Under the pieces are notes generated by a model. That model saw only the letters and a program-made list of their open reading frames with translations. It was not told the origin of the DNA and made no database searches. A stretch of 35,726 nucleotides of DNA, taken from IMG/VR virus record IMGVR_UViG_3300028189_000002; one strand, given 5' to 3'. This document shows, in pieces, positions 2,345-35,726 of the stretch; positions within the stretch are counted from its first letter, which is position 1, and each line of letters opens with the position of its first letter. Both the position numbers and the translations under genes were made by a program. This DNA is from a virus.

Positions 2345-3961
2345 TTGCAAAAAGAATTTAAAATTGTCAACCTGAACACAAATGAAATACCCTTCCGTAA
2401 TTTCAATAATCCATCATCGCTCAATCGGTACAATAAAACACAGAAACCGATTACTGATTTAATAACAGAATCAAAGAAGTCATTTATTATGTTATCGGCG
2501 CCAACTGGTTTGGGCAAATCTTTAATCTGTGCGATGTCTGCATATACTCTATCAAATAAAATCAATTACGTTTGTTCTGATAAACAATTACAGGACCAGT
2601 TATTAAATGATTTCCCTGAAGCTGTGGTACTCAAGGGTAGAGGAAATTACACCTGTAACCTATTCCCCCATTTAAACGCCGATACCTGTGTCGGGCAATG
2701 TGCGGAATATAAAGCCAAAGAGATCCAGTGTAATTATTATGATAAAAAGGCTGAACTCCTAAATGCAGACTTCCGTATCCTAAATACATTCTACCTGTTA
2801 TTTGAAATGAATTATGCCGGGCAGTTAAAAGGGCAGGATTTAATCATAATTGACGAGGCTGATACCCTGGACCTTAATTTCATATCGTTTGTGTCCTTGC
2901 AAGTATCAGATTCGCTTATAAGGAAATATGATCTCGGATACCCGAAACTAACCGTAGTCGAATCATGGATTGATTGGGCCGGTGATTCTATAATCAAGCT
3001 GGAAAAATCCTACAATTCAGAAAATTGCAAGAATTCCTTAGATCCTGAATTCGTAAAAGCTGATAAATTAATCAAAAAGTTGAAACTGTTCATACTTTTG
3101 GTTGAGGATGATTGGATTTATAATCGGCATAATACTTATTCTGAATTCAAACCTGTATGGATTACTAAGGAATTGATACAAAAGTACCTGTTTTCTCATG
3201 CTGACCGGTTTATTCTCTGTTCTGCTTCACTTCCTCCGAAAGCAACTATATGTAATACCTTGATGATTGATCCTGCAGATTGTGATTATATTGAAGTCGG
3301 GTCCAGCTTTTTACCGGAAAACCGTAAAGTGATATACGAACCTGTTATGGATATGAGTTTCAAGAATAAAGAAAAGTATATGACTATGATCGATTATGTA
3401 GGAATTGTCCTTGATCGCCATGCCACTGAAAAAGGGATTATACATTGTCAGTCCTATGCGCTCCGGGATCTGATTATGGAGATCGGCGGCAATCGATTGA
3501 TTACACATGAGTCGAAAGATAAACAGAAACAATTGCATATCTTCTATAATTCCACAGAGCCCCTTGTATTTGTTTCCCCTTCTTGTGTGCGAGGATTGTC
3601 GTTAAACGATGATAAAGCGCGATTTGGTATCTGTGTAAAGATGCCGTTCCCGAATCTCGGTGACAAGGCTATATCGAAGCGTTGCTATGGATCAGGTAAT
3701 AAAGGCAAGATGTGGTATAATTCCGAAACGGCGCAAGCTGTGTTGCAAATGTCCGGTAGGCATGTAAGATCTCATACTGATTGGGGTGTTATGTATATAT
3801 TGGATAGTTGTTTTGAGCGTGTCCGTAAGTGTTTGCCGAAATGGTTTAACGATGATATTGTAGAAGACTTTGATTATGGAGAGGAAGAAGATCAGGCCAA
3901 GTGTCCTGAATTAGTGAATGCCGGGATCACTCAGCCTGACGAAGATGATTTTGATTATTGA
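2345..3961 (+). CDS. DinG/XPD(Rad3)-like superfamily-2 DNA helicase with a Fe-S cluster Cys motif
   Basis: Walker A MLSAPTGLGKS and DEAD box IIIDEADTLD. Four-Cys insert C-NLFPHLNADT-C-VGQ-C-AEYKAKEIQ-C between them. C-terminal SGRHVRS motif VI-like. TTG start 9 nt after AGGAG. Confidence 0.8.
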   Translation: MQKEFKIVNLNTNEIPFRNFNNPSSLNRYNKTQKPITDLITESKKSFIMLSAPTGLGKSLICAMSAYTLSNKINYVCSDKQLQDQLLNDFPEAVVLKGRGNYTCNLFPHLNADTCVGQCAEYKAKEIQCNYYDKKAELLNADFRILNTFYLLFEMNYAGQLKGQDLIIIDEADTLDLNFISFVSLQVSDSLIRKYDLGYPKLTVVESWIDWAGDSIIKLEKSYNSENCKNSLDPEFVKADKLIKKLKLFILLVEDDWIYNRHNTYSEFKPVWITKELIQKYLFSHADRFILCSASLPPKATICNTLMIDPADCDYIEVGSSFLPENRKVIYEPVMDMSFKNKEKYMTMIDYVGIVLDRHATEKGIIHCQSYALRDLIMEIGGNRLITHESKDKQKQLHIFYNSTEPLVFVSPSCVRGLSLNDDKARFGICVKMPFPNLGDKAISKRCYGSGNKGKMWYNSETAQAVLQMSGRHVRSHTDWGVMYILDSCFERVRKCLPKWFNDDIVEDFDYGEEEDQAKCPELVNAGITQPDEDDFDY

Positions 3962-7355: not shown

Positions 7356-7474
7356 CGTTTTTTATCTGCTAACGCTTCCTTGTGGCACTTCGGACACATG
7401 CTGTAACCGCTGATAAATATTAAACGCTGACCTTCTGCACCGCATCCATCACATTGACTCTCTGTATTATCCAT
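7343..7474 (-). CDS. zinc-ribbon micro-protein (43 aa, below the track cutoff), first gene of the accessory operon
   Basis: Hand translation gives MDNTESQCDGCGAEGQRLIFISGYSMCPKCHKEALADKKRCQS, with CxxC..CxxC spacing. It overlaps the start of 6999..7355 by 13 nt. Confidence 0.45.
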   Translation of the reverse strand: MDNTESQCDGCGAEGQRLIFISGYSMCPKCHKEALADKKRCQS

Positions 7475-7516
7475 AATAAAAACCTGCCCTTTCTTTAAAA
7501 TCCTCTATAAAAAAAA

Positions 7517-7552
7517 CCGGAAAAATCACTTTCCCTTTTTCCGGCTTTTTTT
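7517..7552. terminator. Strong bidirectional intrinsic terminator
   Basis: CCGGAAAAA (7517-7525) pairs with TTTTTCCGG (7536-7544). It is flanked by A7 upstream and CT7 downstream, so the - strand reads hairpin + T8 and the + strand reads hairpin + CTTTTTTT. Confidence 0.7.
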
Positions 7553-7742
7553 CTTTAGTTAAAAACTCTTTTATTCCTATAGTCTGTTTTGTATTTATCT
7601 TGCGAATATTAAATCTCACCCTAGTTGGACCATACTGGTAGATTCAATCCTCACATGAAGCAAGAGAAATATACTAAAGATAAGTGACGATTAGGTAGTT
7701 GGTTTTTTAGTTAATATTCGTGATAGCTTGAGGGAATATTCA

Positions 7743-7771
7743 TCTAAAAACTGTATAAGTTAATAGCTCAA
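7743..7771 (-). promoter_or_regulatory. Candidate sigma70-like promoter for the leader and accessory operon
   Basis: The - strand reads TTGAGC (7771-7766), 17 nt, then TTTAGA (7748-7743). The -10 is weak and this is the only passable match in 7553-7790. Confidence 0.2.
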
Positions 7772-7790
7772 TATTAATCTTTTTGAAAAT

Positions 7791-7810
7791 AAGTTTCGCG
7801 AAACTTTTTT
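7791..7810. terminator. Palindromic terminator downstream of the PKD gene
   Basis: Perfect 16-bp palindrome AAGTTTCGCGAAACTT (7791-7806) with T-runs on both strands, about 105 nt after the stop at 7917. Confidence 0.55.
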
Positions 7811-7916
7811 CTAAGCAGAGCGTAAAGATTTAAAGCTGTTAGATTTTAAATACCTTTAAGCTGAGTGAAGCGAAGTAGGAAATTTTTTATGAGGGTTGTG
7901 CAATTAGAAATGATTG

Positions 7917-8855
7917 TTATGGTGTTGGGTCTGTAACATCAAAGTTTTCTGTAGGGTTTTCAGCCGTGGAGAATTCTACATAGGGTGCGTTTATACCAGA
8001 TGGCCTACGTTTCCAGCTCCATGCAGTAGAAGCACCTGATAAATCCGTGAAGGTACTATCAATATCATCTAATCCTTTGCGTAGATCTGCGGAGAAATCT
8101 GCTTCGGGGTCGTTTACTGTGATGTAACTTGCTTTAGTTTCAACGTCATTATTACCTGCCGCAAATGTGTGTTTATATATTCGTGGTGCTGATGCAATAT
8201 CCCATCCATTTTTATTTGGACTACTTGGTGAGCTTAGTATTGTTGGCGCACTTTCACCGCCACCTGATGGTTCAAAGGTTCTTGTTATACTTGTTCCTGC
8301 AAAAGCTGTAACATCTTCAACGAATAAATCTGTGAAGAATGGCGCACCTGTAGAGGGTAATATCATTCCTGATTCAATAAACTTTATACCGTTTTCTGGT
8401 CCTTGTACTGTAGAAAAAGGAATTCTAAATTCAATTATATGAGAAGTAAAAGATGTTAAGTCGAGTCCTAGTGTTGATTTTGCTTGTCTGTATGTGTATG
8501 TTCCTGATAGATTCCTTACATCGTATCTACCTTGAACTGAAGAAGCTCCAAAACTTGCCGCTAGTAATGCTACATGTGCGGCCGCGTTTGATCCTGCTGA
8601 TCCTGTTCTTTGTAATCTACTTACACTTGTGCCATTTGTAACGGTTTCTCCTGATGATGTGAATGCTCTCAATGTTACAGTGTAAGTACCTGCCACTGTA
8701 TAGACATGAACAGGGTTTTGTACGTTAGAAGATCCACCGTCACCGAAATTCCATAGCCAGTTTGTGGGAGATCCGGTAGAAGTATCAGTAAATGTAACCG
8801 TTAAATCTCTTGCACCTGTTTGAACATCTGAAGTGAATGCCGCGACTACTGCCAT
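7917..8855 (-). CDS. PKD/Ig-like domain virion surface protein (312 aa)
   Basis: The N-terminus LTVTFTDTSTGSPTNWLWNFGDGGSSNVQNPVHVYTVAGTYTVTLRA is a canonical PKD repeat. A second degenerate PKD-like segment lies at the C-terminus (DFSADL..STFTDLS..WSW). Confidence 0.7.
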   Translation of the reverse strand: MAVVAAFTSDVQTGARDLTVTFTDTSTGSPTNWLWNFGDGGSSNVQNPVHVYTVAGTYTVTLRAFTSSGETVTNGTSVSRLQRTGSAGSNAAAHVALLAASFGASSVQGRYDVRNLSGTYTYRQAKSTLGLDLTSFTSHIIEFRIPFSTVQGPENGIKFIESGMILPSTGAPFFTDLFVEDVTAFAGTSITRTFEPSGGGESAPTILSSPSSPNKNGWDIASAPRIYKHTFAAGNNDVETKASYITVNDPEADFSADLRKGLDDIDSTFTDLSGASTAWSWKRRPSGINAPYVEFSTAENPTENFDVTDPTP

Positions 8856-8864
8856 ATTATTATC

Positions 8865-9764
8865 CTATAAGTAAGGGCTGATACTAACTGAAATAAAATT
8901 CCGCTTCTCTCCGACAAATTCTTCACCGTCAATAGTAACCGTCAATTGTATATCCCATTCTTGAATTGCCCATTCTGGTGTCCGTCTACGGTAAAATGCG
9001 CTCAAGGTTTTCTGCATGAATGCTTGATACGCTCCCATCGGTGGGAACAGAGCCAAGTACCAGTGTTCTTTCTTTGGTCTTGGCCCAATGCCAATAGGTA
9101 TTTCTCCGGTAGCTGGTTGAATGTTCCAGGTTGCAACCGCTTTATCTTTGAAGATCCTCTTAGTTTCATCACTTCCGATTAATAAACTTGCCCAATCGAT
9201 TGCGGCTGAATGTTTTTCTATGAGATTTGCCCGGTCAATCTTTAATCGTTCTGATGTTTTACTCGGTTGGTTATTAGCATTATCAATTTCATAATCCCTG
9301 AATCTTCTTCTGAATCTTGTCCTCGGGGTTTTCCCTTTCCTGAATCGTTCTTTCTTTACTTTAGATTCTTTCTTTCTGGTTGAAGTATTACTGACTCCAT
9401 CTTTCTTTTTCTTCTTCCCCTTGTTATTATCAATCCGCTTCTGTTTCTTATTAAACTTCTCTAATCTAAAGTCTTCGTCAGCCTCTAAATCAAAGGGCCA
9501 TTTTATATTACTTGGTGTGAAGAAATCTGGATCTGTATCATAATGCTCAATTTCCCTTAACTCCATTTCCATGAATAGATTAGTGTGTGCTATCTGTAAT
9601 CGTTTATTCTTTGGATCTATGAGATGTTGAAGCTCAACTCTATTGTGGGCTCGTATTAATAATATGGTTGGGAGTGAATGAACGTATGATTTATTTAACA
9701 AACTGGTAGAAAGCGTACCGATGTCTGCTGAAGTAATAGTTTGCGTTGTTTTATTTTCTGCCAT
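8865..9764 (-). CDS. hypothetical protein with an extremely basic central segment (299 aa)
   Basis: Track ORF. Central segment KKQKRIDNNKGKKKKKDG..RKKESKVKKERFRKGKTPRTRFRRRFR. It sits between connector-like and PKD genes. Confidence 0.6.
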   Translation of the reverse strand: MAENKTTQTITSADIGTLSTSLLNKSYVHSLPTILLIRAHNRVELQHLIDPKNKRLQIAHTNLFMEMELREIEHYDTDPDFFTPSNIKWPFDLEADEDFRLEKFNKKQKRIDNNKGKKKKKDGVSNTSTRKKESKVKKERFRKGKTPRTRFRRRFRDYEIDNANNQPSKTSERLKIDRANLIEKHSAAIDWASLLIGSDETKRIFKDKAVATWNIQPATGEIPIGIGPRPKKEHWYLALFPPMGAYQAFMQKTLSAFYRRRTPEWAIQEWDIQLTVTIDGEEFVGEKRNFISVSISPYL

Positions 9765-9776
9765 GATTAAGGATTA

Positions 9777-10238
9777 TCAATAAAAGTCCATTTTCCTGAA
9801 AGCCTTACTCGGATTCAATCGATTACCGTCACGATCTTTCTTAGATAAAGCAACTGTTGGCTCGACTCCTGCGTTGGTTGAAGTAATCTTGTCTAATTCT
9901 GTCGAACTGTCCGGACCTGTAGCCATGATACGTAACTTGTTTATCAAACTCTTAGCTTCCTGAAAGAACGGATTGTATGTAGCGAACTCGAAACCTGCTG
10001 TAGTTGAATTAGATTTCAGTATCATACCAACAGCATAATTCGCTTCAGCCATTACAATGGTCTTAGATACAGTGCCGGTAAATGGAACAGTGTACCTATC
10101 TCTGAGGTTGTCATTCACCCAATCGTATGCTAAGGCACGTTCAAGTGCAAAGTCGCTTAGAGAGAGCGAATACCCGGGCGTTGTAGCTATGCCATGAAAC
10201 AACTGGTCAAGCTCCGCGTCTGTACTATATGTCGCCAT
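9777..10238 (-). CDS. head-tail connector/adaptor-like protein (gp6/DUF1320-like)
   Basis: MATYSTDAELDQL..ALERALAYDWVNDNLRDRYTVPF resembles the Y-t-aDl ... RY.vP N-terminal pattern of Mu gp36/DUF1320-type adaptors. AGGAGGA SD at 10246-10252. Confidence 0.4.
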   Translation of the reverse strand: MATYSTDAELDQLFHGIATTPGYSLSLSDFALERALAYDWVNDNLRDRYTVPFTGTVSKTIVMAEANYAVGMILKSNSTTAGFEFATYNPFFQEAKSLINKLRIMATGPDSSTELDKITSTNAGVEPTVALSKKDRDGNRLNPSKAFRKMDFY

Positions 10239-10277
10239 TTACTTATCCTCCTGAATAATTGATGTAATTTCTCTGTG

Positions 10278-10306
10278 ATTTAATACGAAATAATATAGAT
10301 TGTCAA
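10278..10306 (-). promoter_or_regulatory. Candidate promoter of the - strand structural unit
   Basis: The - strand reads TTGACA (10306-10301), 17 nt, then TTAAAT (10283-10278), about 35 nt upstream of the SD and ATG at 10238. Confidence 0.35.
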
Positions 10307-10358
10307 TGTTAAAACGGTATAACTGTACGTAATATATAATGGTTGTTGATTAGATAGG

Positions 10359-10423
10359 TGTGACAAAATGTCAAAAAGATGTAAGTCCTTGTGACAAAAT
10401 GTCAAAGAGTGTGTCAATGTCAC
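10359..10423. promoter_or_regulatory. Operator-like palindromes (TGACA-AAA-TGTCA)
   Basis: The identical 17-mer TGTGACAAAATGTCAAA occurs at 10359-10375 and 10390-10406, a 31-bp spacing. A related GTGTCAATGTCAC lies at 10411-10423. Confidence 0.5.
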
Positions 10424-10554
10424 GTTTGGATAGGTAAACAGTGGGTGCAGGAAATTTGCTGCGCACTTTGGCCTTGCCTACACTGCGTGCGAACACTTCT
10501 GTTCGGAATATTCTTGCGCAGGAATTTCGCAAAAAACATTAAAAAAGCTCTTTT

Positions 10555-10583
10555 TTGACCCTTTTTGGCCCTTTTGTGATCAT
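10555..10583 (+). promoter_or_regulatory. Candidate extended -10 promoter reading into the structured non-coding block
   Basis: TTGACC (10555-10560), 17 nt, then TGt-GATCAT (10575-10583). Confidence 0.3.
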
Positions 10584-10589
10584 GTCCAA

Positions 10590-10831
10590 AATCGTAGTTT
10601 TTGAGGGGTGGTGGTCGGGATAAGGAGCGTAGTAATAGAGAGGTCATTAATAAAATGTGAAGATAACATAAAGCACATTATGTTAGGCTGTAAGCCGGTA
10701 TCAATAAGAGTAGCTTTCTGTCAGATAACTAGTTAGTTATCGGATGGCAAGCGTTGGAAGGTTCAATTGATGGTAGGAATACCGCTTCACATTTTATTAG
10801 TGGGCGAACGCCTCCGCTGGCTTTTGTTTTT
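10590..10831 (+). ncRNA. Candidate ~240-nt structured RNA (unknown class)
   Basis: A 15-bp perfect closing helix pairs 10648-10662 with 10785-10799, extendable to 19 bp with G-U pairs. It encloses three local hairpins: 10664-10685, 10686-10696 and 10724-10741. An upstream promoter-like site and the downstream T-tract TTTTGTTTTT (10822-10831) flank it. No ORF is present. Confidence 0.3.
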
Positions 10832-10900
10832 AAATAGATTGGTTCATTTGAGCCGTTGCTTCTGGTAAATAAAAACGTGTCGTTTTTTATTTATAATGTA

Positions 10901-11023
10901 TGCCGGCTACTCCCTGCCAGCCCAGAGGAAAGTAACCTCAACAAACAAAGAAAATAATACCTTTAATAATAATATATACTTTTGAATAGAATGGGTGGGG
11001 CTGGCCGAGGGAGGGGGATGGCA
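10901..11023. other. GC-rich long-range helix (second candidate structured element)
   Basis: 10901-10905 pairs with 11019-11023. CTCCCT 10910-10915 pairs with AGGGAG 11008-11013. GCCAGCCC 10916-10923 pairs with GGGCTGGC 10998-11005. Together these are about 19 bp closing a 74-nt AT-rich loop. TATAAT lies just upstream at 10892-10897. Confidence 0.3.
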
Positions 11024-11343
11024 TATAAGAAATAACATTGAGCGTTTAGCGAACACCATATTGTAGTTCTTCGTATAAAATGATTAACATAGTATGTTCA
11101 TCTTTTTATATATTAAACAACAATGAGCCTGTCGAGGATTCAGTCTTTATCGAATCCAGGCGAATACTTTTATCAATCTTCCTTCCAAATAAACCATCCA
11201 CACTAATCAAGCTGAGAGTAATCGAAGCGTAGCAAATCATTCATCCAATATAAATCCACCTCACTAATATAAACATGCATCCGAATTCTTTTAATTAAAG
11301 AACAATGAGCTATCCTTATTTTTTTTATTAATAGCGAATTCAT

Positions 11344-11387
11344 CTAAGTAAAAATTTTTATACCTAAGTATAAAAAAAATTTTTATA
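11344..11387. repeat. Tandem A/T-tract direct repeat inside a very AT-rich 340-bp block (11320-11660)
   Basis: CTAAGTAAAAATTTTTATA (11344-11362) and CTAAGTATAAAAAAAATTTTTATA (11364-11387). The surrounding sequence has A8/T6-8 tracts (11496-11550). Confidence 0.7.
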
Positions 11388-11665
11388 GAAAAATATTTTA
11401 AAGGAACACCAATGACGTATTCTTTTTTTCTTATAGTAGAAGAAAGATAAGGTAGAAAGATTGTAGATCCTACTTCCGAATGCTATGTGATTATCAATCA
11501 ATCAAAAAAAAATTTAAAAAAAATCAAAAATAAATTTTTTACTTTTAAAAAATTAATATACTGACTCACATAAATATACTTCCGTGTAAGACTCATTTAA
11601 AATTATTGATAATCTATATATATCTATTTAATCAACTCACCCTCCAAAATAACACTTTTTTTATA

Positions 11666-11694
11666 TTGACTTGCGTAAGCTGTTATGATAAGAT
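11666..11694 (+). promoter_or_regulatory. Near-consensus sigma70-type promoter of the long + strand operon
   Basis: TTGACT (11666-11671), 17 nt, then TGa-TAAGAT (11686-11694). The ATG at 11702 begins 8 nt after the -10. Confidence 0.55.
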
Positions 11695-11701
11695 ATGCAT
11701 T

Positions 11702-11926
11702 ATGAAAATGATTGATACTATACAGGAAATGATTTATGGATTTGAAAGGGATAAAGGGGTTGTGCCGACTGAGATATTTATACCTGTCCTTGATTATCTA
11801 ATTTTAAAAGAAGAAGCTGAACCATTTCTTTTAAATGAGAAGCCACAAGATAGGGAATTAATGAAGATATGCGGATTGGCAATTGAACAAACCTACTCTG
11901 AATTGGGTGTGTACTTAGAATCTTAA
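11702..11926 (+). CDS. hypothetical protein (74 aa), probably translated from a leaderless mRNA
   Basis: Track ORF 11606..11926 trimmed to the in-frame ATG at 11702 (MKMIDTIQEMIYGF..). The upstream part runs over the promoter and is low-complexity. There is no SD. Confidence 0.5.
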   Translation: MKMIDTIQEMIYGFERDKGVVPTEIFIPVLDYLILKEEAEPFLLNEKPQDRELMKICGLAIEQTYSELGVYLES

Positions 11927-11992
11927 TTTTGCGGTTATGATATAGTTGTTGTTAATTGTTACTGGTGTTTAATCTTTTTTGGAGAATGTAAT

Positions 11993-12361
11993 ATGAATTG
12001 TGATACTGGTAGATTTGAGAATTTTAATAGTGGTGATGATATTAAGCCTCCGTGGAGAGAGTGGTCGGTTGACGAGTTGATTGTGGTTAAGGATGAAAAT
12101 ACGAAGAAGTTGGTTATGTCCAGGTTGCTGGTTGGTAATCGTAGCGGTGGGGTGTTGGTACATAAGAACCAGATTGACATATTATCTGCAGGTAGGATTA
12201 AGGCTATGCAGGGTAGAAGGCACCGAAGACTTATACTAATATTTATGTTGATGAACCGATTATATGTTTTGATTCAAAGAGTCTGTTTGATTTGTATGCG
12301 CTGGTTGCTGATAGGAAGGTTGAGCAGACTTTTATATTTTTGGGGTTATAGGTATGGATAA
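11993..12361 (+). CDS. hypothetical protein (122 aa as written; the 3' third may be frameshifted)
   Basis: GGAG lies 8 nt upstream. The N-terminal 75 aa look protein-like. The C-terminal RRHRRLILIFMLMNRLYVLIQRVCLICMRWLL looks like off-frame sequence, while the -1 frame reads KTYTNIYVDEPIICFDSKSLFDLYALVADRKVEQTFIFLGL. Confidence 0.45.
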   Translation: MNCDTGRFENFNSGDDIKPPWREWSVDELIVVKDENTKKLVMSRLLVGNRSGGVLVHKNQIDILSAGRIKAMQGRRHRRLILIFMLMNRLYVLIQRVCLICMRWLLIGRLSRLLYFWGYRYG

Positions 12362-12461
12362 GGAATTTATAATTATGGTGTTGAGGTATGTGATCCCGGG
12401 TGTGTGCTTGGTTGTAATGGTGGGGTTGGGTGTTTTGTTTGTGAAGGGTAGGGGGGAATGA
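12354..12461 (+). CDS. putative membrane micro-peptide (35 aa)
   Basis: Hand translation gives MDKEFIIMVLRYVIPGVCLVVMVGLGVLFVKGRGE. It links the neighbouring ORFs through overlapping start and stop codons. Confidence 0.3.
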   Translation: MDKEFIIMVLRYVIPGVCLVVMVGLGVLFVKGRGE

Positions 12462-12634
12462 GATACTACAAAATATCATTCAGGATGTTTAAGAAGAATT
12501 GTGCGCATAGGTTGTATGTTAAAGGTAATTGTGCTGAACTATATGAATATGATGTCCGTATTAGAGTAGATGTTCATACTAAATGCACCGAGGCTAATTG
12601 CCCTGTGTTAAAGAAATTGGAGGAAGTGAAATGA
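12458..12634 (+). CDS. putative 4-Cys small protein (58 aa, below the track cutoff)
   Basis: Hand translation gives MRYYKISFRMFKKNCAHRLYVKGNCAELYEYDVRIRVDVHTKCTEANCPVLKKLEEVK. ATGA overlaps occur at both ends. Confidence 0.4.
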   Translation: MRYYKISFRMFKKNCAHRLYVKGNCAELYEYDVRIRVDVHTKCTEANCPVLKKLEEVK

Positions 12635-12933
12635 GTGATGCACCTGAGAGGATATGGGTTGAGAATCTAAATGCAAATTACAGACATTCGAGTAATTGTT
12701 CTTTGACTGACCCTAAATTAGATCCACAAGATCATAGGGTTATGGATGAATATATAATCAAAGATACTGCGGATAAAGAGATGGAGAAAATCTTACAGCC
12801 GATAAGGGATGTGATGAAAATAAGATACGTTGATTCAGGAAATACTTTAGATCAATGTAATGATAAACGTACAGAACTTCTTAATATCAAACAGGCTGTA
12901 TATGCAACTATTTCAATTGCGGATAATAAATAA
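12631..12933 (+). CDS. hypothetical protein (100 aa)
   Basis: Track ORF 12598..12933 (TTG start) trimmed to ATG 12631, 7 nt after GGAGG. The protein starts MSDAPERIWVENL. Confidence 0.55.
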   Translation: MSDAPERIWVENLNANYRHSSNCSLTDPKLDPQDHRVMDEYIIKDTADKEMEKILQPIRDVMKIRYVDSGNTLDQCNDKRTELLNIKQAVYATISIADNK

Positions 12934-12997
12934 GTACCATCCATTCAAGGCGTATATGCGAGCAATCGCTTGATTCGAGAAAGGGAGTCGATGGGGT

Positions 12998-13195
12998 ATG
13001 TGCCTTGAGTTGATAGTATTTATGAGCGATAAGAAAGAAAAATTTACGGAAGAAGATATAGTTGATTGTTGGGATGCTCATGTGTTTTACTTGATGGGTA
13101 TACTGAACGGTGATTATAATATTGATGAAGCTCGGGAAGACCTAAGAAGTTTGATTGGTAGTAAATACGATCCTAGATTAATTGTGGGGAAATAG
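12998..13195 (+). CDS. hypothetical protein (65 aa)
   Basis: Track ORF with GGGAG about 9 nt upstream. Confidence 0.45.
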   Translation: MCLELIVFMSDKKEKFTEEDIVDCWDAHVFYLMGILNGDYNIDEAREDLRSLIGSKYDPRLIVGK

Positions 13196-13198
13196 ATA

Positions 13199-13354
13199 AT
13201 GATATGTCCTAATTGTTTGAAGAATATAAGTGATAAGGTGGTTGGTCGGTATTGGGGCGCGAAGGGTGGTAGTAAGTCTAAGCGTGTGATTACTCCGGAA
13301 CAACAAGTTAAAATGCAGGAGGGTAGGAACGATGCGAAACAGAGAAGAAGTTAA
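13199..13354 (+). CDS. hypothetical small basic protein (51 aa, below the track cutoff)
   Basis: Hand translation gives MICPNCLKNISDKVVGRYWGAKGGSKSKRVITPEQQVKMQEGRNDAKQRRS. Confidence 0.4.
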   Translation: MICPNCLKNISDKVVGRYWGAKGGSKSKRVITPEQQVKMQEGRNDAKQRRS

Positions 13355-13359
13355 GTATA

Positions 13360-13485
13360 ATGAAAGGCATCAGTGTAATAAGTGGGTTGGTGTTGCGTTT
13401 TGGGTGTGTGTGTTTATTGTTACTTTGTATTTGTGTTGTGATTGATTATGGAAAGGAAGGGCGATATGAATGTAGAGGCGTTTGA
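13360..13485 (+). CDS. putative Cys/Val-rich membrane micro-peptide (41 aa)
   Basis: Hand translation gives MKGISVISGLVLRFGCVCLLLLCICVVIDYGKEGRYECRGV. Confidence 0.25.
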   Translation: MKGISVISGLVLRFGCVCLLLLCICVVIDYGKEGRYECRGV

Positions 13486-13657
13486 TTCAGTAAAGTGGAC
13501 AGGGCAAATGAGAGTGGAGTATAAGAATAAGATTTATGATGTAGCCTCTGTCGATTTTGAAGAAAGACTTATCGGTATTAGCGGTTATTGTGATGGTGGC
13601 GATGAAAGCGATGTGCAATGGATAAGATGTGAAAATGCTGTAATAAACAAATTATAA
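13466..13657 (+). CDS. hypothetical protein (63 aa)
   Basis: Track ORF 13442..13657 (TTG start) trimmed to ATG 13466, which follows AAGGAAGG. Confidence 0.45.
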   Translation: MNVEAFDSVKWTGQMRVEYKNKIYDVASVDFEERLIGISGYCDGGDESDVQWIRCENAVINKL

Positions 13658-13664
13658 AATAACT

Positions 13665-15194
13665 ATGGAAACTGAAACGAAAATAGACTTACTTGAACTT
13701 CTTCCGAAAAACTTCCTGCAGATAATCAAGGAACATATATTCGAGTACAATCTATACCCATATCAATTGGCAGATCTATTAGTTGAGCTTGAAGATATAT
13801 TATTCGGACATGGGAATTCACTTACTCGTGAACGCGCCCGGCAAACTGGTAAAACTGCATCAATTACAATACTAACTCTATCCTGTATGACTCTATTCCC
13901 TGCACTTGCTCAATCGGAAAAGTATTTAAAGCTATTCCCGAGTTTACATTTATTCAAGGATGGGTTTAGTATTGTAATTGTGGCACCGAAAATTGATCAA
14001 GCGAAGATAACACTACGGAGATTAAAGGGTATATCGCAGAAAAAGAACTATAAGAAGCTTATGGCCGAGCTCGGTATTGAAGTTATAAACAAATCTCTGT
14101 TCTTATTCTCGCTATCTAACGGATCTTCTATCGTTGCGATGTCCGGGAACCCTAAATCGGTTACTGAGGGTGAATCCGCGCACCTTTTAATCTTTGACGA
14201 AGCACATCAGATAGTACCTTACTCATGGCATAAGGCGTATTCACCTATGGTATCGTCAACAAACGGAACTATTGTGTCATTTGGGATCTCCTGGACCGCG
14301 AAACTGTCATTCTACAATCAAATACAGATTAATAAGAAGCTTGGACTGCACTCAAGGATACCGTACATGGAAGCACAGAAGTATTCTAAGTATTACAAGA
14401 AGTGGATTATGAATGAATTGTCTCGAATCGGTAAGGATTCTATTGAATTCCAGTTAAATTTCCTTCTCGTTTGGCTATTAAAGACTACAAATCCGATTAC
14501 TCCGGAGCTTTGGGATGACATTGATATGCTTGGTGATTATAAACCGGGTGAAATTACTTCAGATAATCTATATGTTGGGATAGATTGGGGCAAAACTCAC
14601 AATAATACCTTTGTTACTGTGGTAGAAAAGGCTTTAAACTGCTTGAAAATGGTGGATTTACTTGAATTAACTGGTGATGATTACCCTCAACAGCATATTG
14701 CTATACAAGTTTTCCTGAATAAGTACCCGAGATTGAAGAAAATCTGGTCAGAATCTACCGGAGTCGGCGATACTAACACCGATTTCCTCATTGCGATCTT
14801 TGGAAGTAAGGTTCAGCCGGTCACAGCGTACAATTTACCTATGTTACATGATAAAATGCTGAACGAAATTAACTATAAACGGTTGATTCGGCCCAAAGTT
14901 AAGGATGCCGGTCCCTGGAAATCACTCACAAGGCAGTTTTTGAACTGCGAAAAGATATATCACGGATCATCTTTTAAACTTGTGGCGCCTCAAGGTGCGG
15001 ATGAACAGGATGATGCTATCGATTCGTGTGGGTTGGCAGTCGGTGCCGCACTGAATGACCAGTTATTTGATTTTGTTTACAGGAAATCTACTGCGATTAA
15101 TGAAAGATTGAATACTTTAGCGAATGATCGGGTGATTAAGAGTGGTGAAGGTAGGAGTCGGAGTGGTACTGAGAAGCATATTAGTAATTATTAA
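13665..15194 (+). CDS. terL: terminase large subunit
   Basis: 509 aa. Walker A-like RQTGKTAS and Walker B LLIFDEAH. C-terminal RNaseH-like nuclease segments YVGIDWGKTHNNTFVTVVE and DDAIDS. Typical size and position at the head of the morphogenesis genes. Confidence 0.85.
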   Translation: METETKIDLLELLPKNFLQIIKEHIFEYNLYPYQLADLLVELEDILFGHGNSLTRERARQTGKTASITILTLSCMTLFPALAQSEKYLKLFPSLHLFKDGFSIVIVAPKIDQAKITLRRLKGISQKKNYKKLMAELGIEVINKSLFLFSLSNGSSIVAMSGNPKSVTEGESAHLLIFDEAHQIVPYSWHKAYSPMVSSTNGTIVSFGISWTAKLSFYNQIQINKKLGLHSRIPYMEAQKYSKYYKKWIMNELSRIGKDSIEFQLNFLLVWLLKTTNPITPELWDDIDMLGDYKPGEITSDNLYVGIDWGKTHNNTFVTVVEKALNCLKMVDLLELTGDDYPQQHIAIQVFLNKYPRLKKIWSESTGVGDTNTDFLIAIFGSKVQPVTAYNLPMLHDKMLNEINYKRLIRPKVKDAGPWKSLTRQFLNCEKIYHGSSFKLVAPQGADEQDDAIDSCGLAVGAALNDQLFDFVYRKSTAINERLNTLANDRVIKSGEGRSRSGTEKHISNY

Positions 15195-15212
15195 TTTGGG
15201 AAGGTGGGTATT

Positions 15213-15398
15213 ATGAAAAAATATGAATTAGATTTTTGGTATTGGTTGGTTAAATATCTCATTCCGAATAAAGTAAAGTATTTTTGCTTTATGCATATCA
15301 TGGCTTATGCAACCACAGGGAAGTATGGTGATACGGTTGTGCCGGAACTTACTGGAATGGATGCGATTAAACGATATGGCGATGATAAGGGTATATGA
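15213..15398 (+). CDS. hypothetical protein (61 aa)
   Basis: Track ORF 15204..15398 (GTG start) trimmed to ATG 15213, which follows GGGAAGGTGGG. Confidence 0.45.
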   Translation: MKKYELDFWYWLVKYLIPNKVKYFCFMHIMAYATTGKYGDTVVPELTGMDAIKRYGDDKGI

Positions 15399-35566: not shown

Positions 35567-35726
35567 ATGAAAAATACTGATGAATTCTGCGCTCCACCTA
35601 TTAAATTAAACCCTACACACGTTTCATACATACCGTCAGTACCTAAAGACTTTATAATTTCCGTTGATACTCGTGAGCAGAAGCCTTATAAATTTGGGAA
35701 GATCCCGGTAATTGTGAAGACTATCA
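35567..35726 (+). CDS. ERCC4-type nuclease, 5' part (continues at base 128 of the circular map; bases 35600-35726 duplicate 1-127)
   Basis: ATG at 35567 is in frame with base 1. The protein starts MKNTDEFCAPP and continues IKLNPTHVSY... Confidence 0.6.
   Translation, partial: MKNTDEFCAPPIKLNPTHVSYIPSVPKDFIISVDTREQKPYKFGKIPVIVKTI
35600..35726. repeat. Terminal direct repeat, copy 2
   Basis: Identical to bases 1-127. Confidence 0.95.

Follow-up and report, generated by a model that had tools for sequence, protein, structure and literature searches.

The phage genome IMGVR_UViG_3300028189_000002 carries one long stretch without genes, positions 10239 to 11701, which in our reading is probably a central non-coding control region, a regulatory hub that would include a rightward unit of non-coding RNA. 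The window, by which we mean the whole stretch of DNA analysed (35,726 nt), is a complete phage genome with a circular assembly of 35,599 bp. Within the gene-free stretch, the argument centres on Element 1, a multi-helix fold of 147 nt that is retained in eight distinct phages. The non-coding state of the stretch, its conservation, the fold together with the strand on which it forms, and the conserved promoter hexamers are directly supported. We conclude that the stretch is real, conserved and not junk.

The stretch extends from the ATG at 10238 on the minus strand to the ATG at 11702 on the plus strand. With 1463 of 35,599 nt (4.1%) it is the largest gap in the genome, and an earlier note on this DNA, which had pointed to a divergent region of 1.46 kb free of open reading frames (ORFs) and to about 4% non-coding DNA, is borne out. 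The only ORF of at least 60 aa between 10239 and 11701 lies on the minus strand at 10420-10647 (75 aa); tblastx against the relatives finds no frame-specific conservation for it, in agreement with its earlier dismissal as a gene. The longest open frames in the stretch reach about 85 aa with genetic code 11, 122 aa with TGA read as sense and 99 aa with TAG read as sense, and none spans the region. Under codes 4 or 15, no long open frame kept in one frame is found in the stretch, and a recoded gene is excluded on these grounds. Third-party gene calls on three assemblies in which the stretch is 100% identical (L020-L022) leave exactly these 1,463 nt empty, the next-largest gaps being 442 and 269 nt. 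In tblastx comparison with seven relatives, all six frames are matched and each is interrupted by stops, which places the conservation at the level of nucleotides and not of a reading frame. That a hidden or recoded protein gene, or a set of small peptide genes, explains the conservation is extremely improbable, and within the limits of sequence evidence such a gene can be excluded. Short ATG frames do exist, such as 11122-11205 with 27 codons, the first 13 residues of which are mostly kept in relative L023. The nucleotides that relative L032 shares with 11136-11157 are read in another frame, however, and this frame shift rules out a small conserved peptide at 11122.

About 20 distinct related phage loci, designated by L-numbers, were gathered through the neighbouring 299-aa and 153-aa proteins. 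A gene-poor stretch of 1.5-2.5 kb is also present in L001, L003, L018, L019, L023, L024, L026, L028 and L032. L023 is colinear with the window across the whole region (65% identity over 1542 columns), and conservation peaks at 10640-10740, 10940-11040 and 11490-11700. Despite inversion or relocation of the module of 153-aa, 299-aa and PKD genes in some genomes, the stretch stays upstream of the leftward operon and divergent from it, and Element 1 points away from this operon in every relative examined. L029 and L031 have just a short intergenic spacer at the corresponding place, and the more distant L006, L008 and L010 have unrelated non-coding regions elsewhere.

Element 1 was located in the window and scored in further members as follows.

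10650-10796, plus strand: Element 1, a 147-nt multi-helix fold, from covariance models and compensatory changes
L019: Element 1, 102.6 bits
L018: Element 1, 67.4 bits
L023: Element 1, 117 bits
L026: Element 1, 104.3 bits
L032: Element 1, 111.6 bits with the rebuilt model R2

The closing helix P1 surrounds P4, itself a helix, and the hairpins P2 and P3; the invariant hairpin P5 lies inside P4. P1 can be extended to 10645-10802 in the window, and the fold of this segment reaches z = -4.4 against dinucleotide shuffles. The first covariance model, R1, was built from window 10650-10796, L003 and L001, the shared fold of which was spotted by eye; R2 is the rebuilt model. The five further members came from the model search and were not used in building R1. 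R1 and R2 give 138-143 bits in the window and 107-139 bits in seven other distinct phages. In the alignment of the eight distinct sequences, standard pairs fill 94.5% of the cells, and 23 of the 48 pairs show compensatory change on both sides. None of 500 column shuffles matches this alignment on any of five measures, and pairing falls to 36-46% when the partners are slid by one to three columns. The changes are most clearly seen in P1, where the window has AAAUGUGAAG/CUUCACAUUU, L018 has GUGGCGGGGG/CCCCCGCCAU, L026 has AAAGCCGAAG/CUUCGGCUUU and L001 has GGCAAAG/CUUUGCC. The folded strand is the plus strand of the window, because the alignment holds 24 G-U cells as compared with 3 A-C cells; the reverse strand scores 24-38 bits compared with 100-143 bits for the forward strand. 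Element 1 is 82% identical to its counterpart in L019 and 75% to that in L032, with 74% and 72% for the DNA of the neighbouring protein gene. P2 (ACAUAA/UUAUGU) and P5 (GCUUUCUGUCUGAUAA...UUAUCAGAUGGCAAGC, in which two G-U positions adjoin) hardly vary in sequence: 14 of their 23 pairs never change. The other helices keep pairing only, loops and junctions vary freely, and a single unpaired column is invariant.

The compensatory changes and the strand-specific G-U pairs argue that Element 1 is a structured nucleic-acid element. Among the functions that the earlier note had listed, structured RNA gains support from these eight distinct phages, while an origin, a partition site or a packaging site is neither shown nor excluded. 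Covariation and strand asymmetry suit any single-stranded nucleic acid, and stems that stay invariant in an orientation-specific element would also be expected if the folds formed in single-stranded DNA, with Element 1 as a strand-specific priming signal (a single-strand origin or a primosome assembly site, as rolling-circle replicons have). AAGCGT after P5 weakly resembles what we take to be the CS-6 motif of ssoA, TAGCGT. We regard this explanation as very improbable. The conserved tandem G-U in P5 is typical of RNA and destabilising in DNA, small ORFs of the relatives that are co-oriented with the folds and terminator hairpins point to transcription, and no rolling-circle initiator is recognised in the protein scans.

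The RNA family appears undescribed in comparison with Rfam. The Rfam scan over the whole window, which the earlier note had proposed, gives no match at the gathering threshold of Rfam 15 (best by E-value 0.42, 14 bits), and L026 and L019 have no relevant match either. No tRNA or tmRNA is found in the window. Scanned by pattern for further members of Element 1, IMG/VR (two scans) and the GTDB genomes (one scan) yield only the two IMG/VR contigs that were already known, and no host or prophage copies are found in GTDB genomes through the 153-aa protein. A riboswitch is unlikely, with one invariant unpaired column (no conserved pocket) and a downstream ORF only in L019 and L032. An antisense RNA that acts by loop pairing is likewise unlikely, as the loops are not conserved. 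Because its invariant parts are helices, Element 1 is more likely a duplex recognised by a protein, as scaffold, decoy or processing substrate, than a sensor of ligand or an RNA that pairs to a target through its loops.

The fold is flanked by sites with the appearance of promoters and operators.

10278-10306, minus strand: P_L, candidate leftward promoter, -35 TTGACA (10301-10306), 17-nt spacer, -10 TTAAAT (10278-10283)
10359-10373 and 10390-10404, no strand assigned: operator-like sites, both TGTGACAAAATGTCA, in which TGACA-N3-TGTCA forms an inverted repeat
10411-10423, no strand assigned: related operator-like site GTGTCAATGTCAC, in direct repeat family D3 with the TGTGACAAAATGTCA copies
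10456-10484, plus strand: candidate promoter of the non-coding unit, TTGCTG-N17-TACACT
10605-10627, plus strand: G-rich leader block GGGGTGGTGGTCGGGATAAGGAG, nearly identical in L019, L023 and L032
11666-11704, plus strand: P_R, candidate rightward promoter, -35 TTGACT (11666-11671), 17-nt spacer, TG-extended -10 TAAGAT (11689-11694)

Both hexamers of P_L are invariant in the window, L019, L023 and L032 with varying flanks, and a strong AGGAGG ribosome site follows ahead of the 153-aa gene. P_R is kept in L019 and L026 along with ATGAA 5-7 nt past the -10. Since the ATG at 11702 sits 7 nt past the -10 of P_R, the first rightward gene is probably leaderless. From these features we infer that P_L and P_R function as sigma-70-type promoters. 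For the non-coding unit, TTGCTG-N17-TACACT may act as a weak promoter. Its hexamers and its 17-nt spacing are kept in L019 and L023, where the spacer sequence differs, and the block 10455-10607 aligns to L001 with E = 4e-7. An alternative, TTGACC-17-GATCAT at 10555-10583, occurs only in the window. The leader block lies about 25 nt ahead of Element 1 and has relatives in L001, L018 and L026 (TTCGGGTGGGTGGG) and in L003 (GGGTGGGTGGG).

The operator-like palindromes that had been noticed at 10301-10424 are present and fit a conserved layout of promoter plus palindromes. The two TGTGACAAAATGTCA sites are shared with L019, and other palindromes occupy this position in L001 and L003, as is usual for exchangeable sets of regulator and operator. 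Two CRISPR-related candidates were rejected. AATGTCACG at 10416-10424, a 9-nt match to the type III-E repeat of Candidatus Scalindua brodae (repeat sequence from 10.1101/2022.08.22.504715), was considered as a repeat mimic; a match of this length lies within our estimate of chance for a genome of this size and is absent from L019, and AATGTCACG belongs to the family of operator motifs. No counterpart to the 3' half of that repeat is found with up to 3 mismatches allowed. A CRISPR array is rejected with repeat cores of 13-16 nt in the relatives compared with the expected ~28-37 nt.

The leftward operon next to P_L shows its own rearrangements. The module of 153-aa, 299-aa and PKD genes (7917-10238 in the window) is inverted in the window, L001 and L019 relative to L003/L005, L011, L012 and L018, and in L005, L011 and L012 it lies directly upstream of the terminase gene on the same strand. 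The 153-aa-type protein is probably structural, because a 151-aa homologue lies inside the head gene cluster of the distant relative L025. Exact copies of the 153-aa protein occur in at least 23 public assemblies with contigs of ~35.7 kb, and the phage thus recurs across many environmental samples. One NCBI copy is binned as Candidatus Scalindua sp., an anammox bacterium, which gives a weak hint at the host of this phage clade.

Downstream of Element 1, further hairpins and one conserved block follow on the same strand.

10804-10831, plus strand: 14-nt motif GCGAACGCCTCCGC followed by a T-run (CTTTTGTTTTT), with the look of a weak terminator
10867-10892, plus strand: T2, AU-rich hairpin AAATAAAAACG-TGT-CGTTTTTTATTT, which looks like a bidirectional terminator
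10899-11028, plus strand: Element 2, a long hairpin of 130 nt with C-rich 5' arm (10902-10924), variable AT-rich top and G-rich 3' arm GGGTGGGGCTGGCCGAGGGAGGGGGATGGCATA (10994-11024)
11035-11071, plus strand: conserved block AACATTGAGCGTTTAGCGAACACCATATTGTAGTTCTT, the empty site of a small-ORF cassette
L019 8993-8826 and 8529-8338, L032 ~1140-985, 886-704 and 490-329: inserted small ORFs (52-63 aa) in the homologous non-coding region
11128-11160, plus strand: Element 3, a hairpin with stem GGATTC/GAATCC and conserved 10-nt loop AGTCTTTATC

The motif GCGARYGMCWCCGC follows Element 1 in the window, L019, L023, L003 and L026, and L032 has the variant ...CCTCCGAT; a T-run follows Element 1 in three members. 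T2 is kept in L019, L023 and L032, with one pair changed from G-C to A-U in L032, and it lies downstream of an inserted small ORF in L019 and L032. Element 2 has a minimum free energy of -43.6 kcal/mol and z = -4.25 against dinucleotide shuffles. The GC-rich blocks with long-range complementarity that the earlier note had described turn out to be two folds, this one and 10645-10802. Element 2 is found in the window, L001, L018, L019, L023, L026 and L032, with a length of 128-130 nt in the six copies measured. All copies have complementary sides in the middle stem, of which three sequence versions occur, GCCAGCCC/GGGCTGGC, CTAGCTAC/GTAGCTAG and CTAGCTCCG/CGGAGCTAG, and the four G-runs of the 3' arm could form a G-quadruplex. 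Because L001 has Element 2 upstream of Element 1, the elements are separate modules and not domains of one fixed large RNA.

Not in all relatives is the stretch free of genes: two to three small ORFs sit between the conserved elements in L019 and L032. In these two genomes, an inserted ORF (63 or 53 aa) lies between two copies of ..CCATATTGTAGTTCTT..; the window has a single copy at 11056-11071. One of the inserted ORFs is Cys-rich, one is hydrophobic and one is common to L019 and L032. All carry ribosome sites and run rightward, co-oriented with the folds, which points indirectly to rightward transcription of the unit. The relatives show the region as an apparent landing pad for small accessory genes, of which the window would be a stripped-down version. 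Element 3 recurs in L023 with the same stem and a near-identical loop and in L032 with stem GGGCTC/GAGCCT and an identical loop. Its conservation is not driven by a peptide, because the shared nucleotides fall in different reading frames.

The right third of the stretch has a different character, with repeats and AT-rich DNA.

11112-11483, plus strand: degenerate array of short direct repeats, from a repeat search and the same motifs in L023
11320-11660, no strand assigned: segment dense in A and T runs, with the highest AT content in the genome

Copies of CGAATWC(TTTT) start at 11151, 11161, 11282, 11335, 11416 and 11477, those at 11161, 11282 and 11416 having the full CGAATWCTTTT. Two positions each are recorded for ATTAAASAACAATGAGC (11112, 11294) and AACAATGAGC (11118, 11300). 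The dispersed direct repeats of the earlier note are thus present; they are short, and have meaning only since the relatives carry the same motifs. At the same position, direct copies of (Y)AGGATTWYCATTM, with a core of 13-16 nt, number 13 in L003 (period 70-81 nt), 11 in L001 (91-96 nt) and 10 in L019 (80-99 nt). These regular arrays sit between the folds and P_R, and their spacers are diverged tandem duplicates. The window and L023 have five to seven looser CGAATWC(TTTT) copies instead. The array motif of the relatives, GGATTAYCATTM, is not above chance in the window, where the CGAATWC variant occurs in its place; the repeats of L003 and L019 contain GGATTACCATT. The inverted pair GATTATCAAT at 11489-11498 and 11605-11614 has only these two copies in the window, and the block of last repeat, AAAAAAATTTAAAAAA and T-run (11489-11547) aligns to L001 7841-7790 and L003 3428-3371. 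A short core under selection, drifting spacers and fast change in copy number are the signature of a protein-binding array, of which the window array would be a degenerate remnant. The first rightward genes all differ among the relatives, and co-variation with the array motif is uninformative. As described in the earlier note, the A/T-tract zone stands out. The eight lowest-GC windows of 200 nt in the genome all start at 11321-11501, and runs of at least five A or T are nine-fold enriched, with 38 per kb in the zone compared with 4.3 per kb genome-wide. No significant A-tract phasing of 10-11 bp, as in curved DNA, is found in this zone.

Repeats next to the most AT-rich segment of the genome raise the question of a replication origin. 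The array would then be composed of iterons, the AT-rich DNA would be the unwinding element and G-rich transcripts would form a stable RNA-DNA hybrid, for which the ColE1 RNA II, the T7 primary origin and the mitochondrial CSBII provide parallels in priming or activation. This could coexist with a role as RNA. In its favour, L001, L003 and L019 have regular arrays of 10-13 short direct repeats by AT-rich DNA, conserved G-rich blocks (the leader and the Element 2 arm) are on the rightward strand, and no polymerase or primase is recognised among the proteins scanned, which makes host-dependent initiation at a defined site likely. We nevertheless consider an origin here unlikely. DnaA-box matches number 151 with 154 expected, none of them clustered in the stretch, the window array is reduced to five to seven weak copies of 7-11 nt, and the periods of 70-99 bp are unlike those of classical iterons (~22 bp). 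No initiator gene is adjacent and the flanking genes have no replication domains in the scans; GC skew tracks the direction of transcription and is uninformative. The helicase gene has a tighter iteron cluster upstream of it, at 2187-2227, with five copies of GTAGCTC and AT-rich DNA.

This cluster is placed in the intergenic region 2130-2344 ahead of the helicase gene (2345-3961) and consists of five tandem 8-bp units (T)CTGTAGC and further GTAGCTC/AGCTAC copies, with AT-rich DNA after them. It is kept in L019 (18460-18410), and in L018 (~14040-14010) the unit is changed to GTGGCTC. It looks like a set of iterons and is a candidate for an origin or for the operator that serves the helicase operon. 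In L008, an unrelated non-coding region of 1.3 kb (13800-15250) has five repeats ATTCCTTTAAGTCTTTAT(T)GACTTCCT parted by GC-rich hairpin-forming inserts, and several CTGTTCACGT repeats adjoining GCGCGTAAGCGCG hairpins, which recall what we take to be origin repeats of the P4 type.

The position of the stretch relative to the packaging genes invites one more comparison.

13665-15194: large terminase gene, recognised in protein scans

The stretch lies ~2 kb upstream of this gene and directly ahead of a strong host-type promoter and small variable genes of early type. Repeats and AT-rich DNA might in this case be a terminase recognition site or the boundary of a direct terminal repeat, and thereby mark a packaging signal or the physical genome ends. 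The closest cultured-phage terminases, from large Bacillus and Streptomyces phages, are counted in favour of it; identity to the terminase of any cultured phage is at most 30%. The window ends carry an exact direct repeat of 127 nt (1-127 = 35600-35726), an overlap of assembler size, and the 35,599-bp genome is either circular or terminally redundant. Circular closure with just this overlap speaks against an end at the stretch, as do other assemblies, which break at unrelated points; no mark of an end is seen. The array is poorly kept in the window, and the covarying folds would be left unexplained. We judge a packaging function improbable. Other recognised products of the genome are a Mu-type portal, a protease-containing head protein and a DinG/XPD-like helicase, and Sak4-type, nuclease and Dam functions are likewise encoded. 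At the DNA level, none of 50,697 deposited phage records matches.

The reading as a control hub, which we prefer, would combine these parts as follows. P_L would drive the operon of 153-aa, 299-aa and PKD genes leftward, and P_R would drive the small variable genes rightward and then terminase, portal and other structural genes. The operator palindromes just inside P_L would serve a putative regulator. Between the two promoters, the rightward unit would make the folded small RNA Element 1 and probably also the second long hairpin RNA with its G-rich arm, Element 2, plus the small hairpin of Element 3, and terminator-like hairpins would punctuate this unit. In the right third, a decayed repeat array precedes an UP-like element and AT-rich DNA that melts easily; together they would most likely form a protein-DNA platform controlling how active P_R is.

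Several observations weigh against this proposal. Transcription of the elements, promoter use, protein binding and every functional role are what we infer from the sequence features. The candidate promoter of the unit is weak and has a different spacing in L001. A canonical intrinsic terminator after Element 1 in all members is not found, and the hairpin at 10804-10831 is non-canonical. The pair counts of Element 1 come from an alignment fitted to the model structure, and the family is small, with eight genomes of one clade. The stems of P2 and P5 are also DNA palindromes, so their conservation may in part reflect a binding site at the level of DNA. Element 2 shows almost no variation in its 3' arm, and its 5' arm drifts without clean compensation (window, L019, L023 and L032), which speaks for the G-rich block acting through its sequence and not for a simple hairpin. 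Close relatives carry neither a recoded gene nor a free deletion here, yet the elements are lacking in the more distant relatives L006, L008, L024, L028, L029 and L031.

Phage control regions are known to encode small regulatory RNAs, among them the P4 CI RNA, the P1/P7 c4 RNA and the lambda OOP RNA. Element 1 shares with these the setting of a small folded RNA in a switch region between divergent operons, next to operators. It differs from them as a larger multi-helix junction of ~147 nt with loops that are not conserved, and neither the C4 family nor any other Rfam family matches it in sequence or structure. The processive antitermination RNAs put of HK022 and EAR offer a second comparison, and put comprises two stem-loops with ~70 nt in total. 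By position alone, Element 1 is similar, as a folded RNA shortly past an early promoter and ahead of several terminator-like hairpins and genes; it is longer than put (~147 nt compared with ~70 nt). A role in antitermination, exerted in cis on the polymerase, would fit its position upstream of these hairpins. The arrays of the relatives resemble iteron or centromere-like arrays such as lambda ori, P1 oriR and F sopC, which have periods of ~22 or 43 bp, in their many direct copies of a short core, drifting spacers, adjoining AT-rich DNA and fast change in copy number. They are unlike these in their period of 70-99 bp and core of 13-16 nt and in the degenerate remnant of the window, and a cognate initiator or partition gene is not found. 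The T7 left end is non-coding, with short repeats followed by strong early host promoters. The stretch likewise is long and non-coding, has short repeats and leads directly into a strong host-type promoter, which small early genes follow. Here, a terminal repeat or genome end is not demonstrable in the circular assembly, and to our knowledge T7 has no covarying RNA folds at the corresponding position. Bulk structured-RNA candidates from IMG/VR phage contigs (PMC10690425) are of the same kind as Element 1, an intergenic motif supported by covariation in uncultured phages.

Outside the stretch, three further sites deserve mention. The coding strand of the small rightward genes at ~11950-13500 is extremely C-poor, with a GC skew of 0.5-0.8 in 100-nt windows that by far exceeds the values elsewhere in the genome; beyond the array of L003 lies a comparable G/T-rich stretch (3270-3150, minus strand). 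ORF 11993-12361 matches a 149-aa protein of L023 and L019 in two frames (12071-12247 and 12220-12348), which hints at a frameshift, a programmed shift or an ORF that was wrongly called. Second in size among the non-coding gaps is 7414-7916 (~500 nt); it contains a strong bidirectional terminator hairpin, AAAAAAACCGGAAAAA...TTTTTCCGGCTTTTTTT, at ~7506-7550, and a similar hairpin at 5770-5720 opens the large non-coding region of L003.

As a kind of object, a phage switch region with small RNAs is known; the RNA family is apparently new and the regular arrays of the relatives are unusual. A more speculative proposal, to which we give little credence, is that Element 1, perhaps together with Element 2, founds a new class of phage small RNA. 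Early in infection, its invariant helices would attach to a host protein (such as a defence nuclease, an RNA chaperone or RNA polymerase) and either neutralise or recruit it, and the regular arrays of the relatives, with their core of 13-16 nt and periods of 77-92 bp, would be a coupled new protein-DNA platform. The non-coding DNA of phages seldom receives attention, and a role is known for few of their small RNAs. Element 1 provides a compact, well-delimited and comparatively well-supported RNA candidate with coordinates in eight genomes and a covariance model that can be used for wider searches. If it acts as an anti-defence decoy or as an element that modifies polymerase, it would represent a new class of tool and a handle on phages of hosts that are hard to culture. 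If it is merely a local regulator, 4% of seemingly empty DNA in this genome would still be functional and modular.

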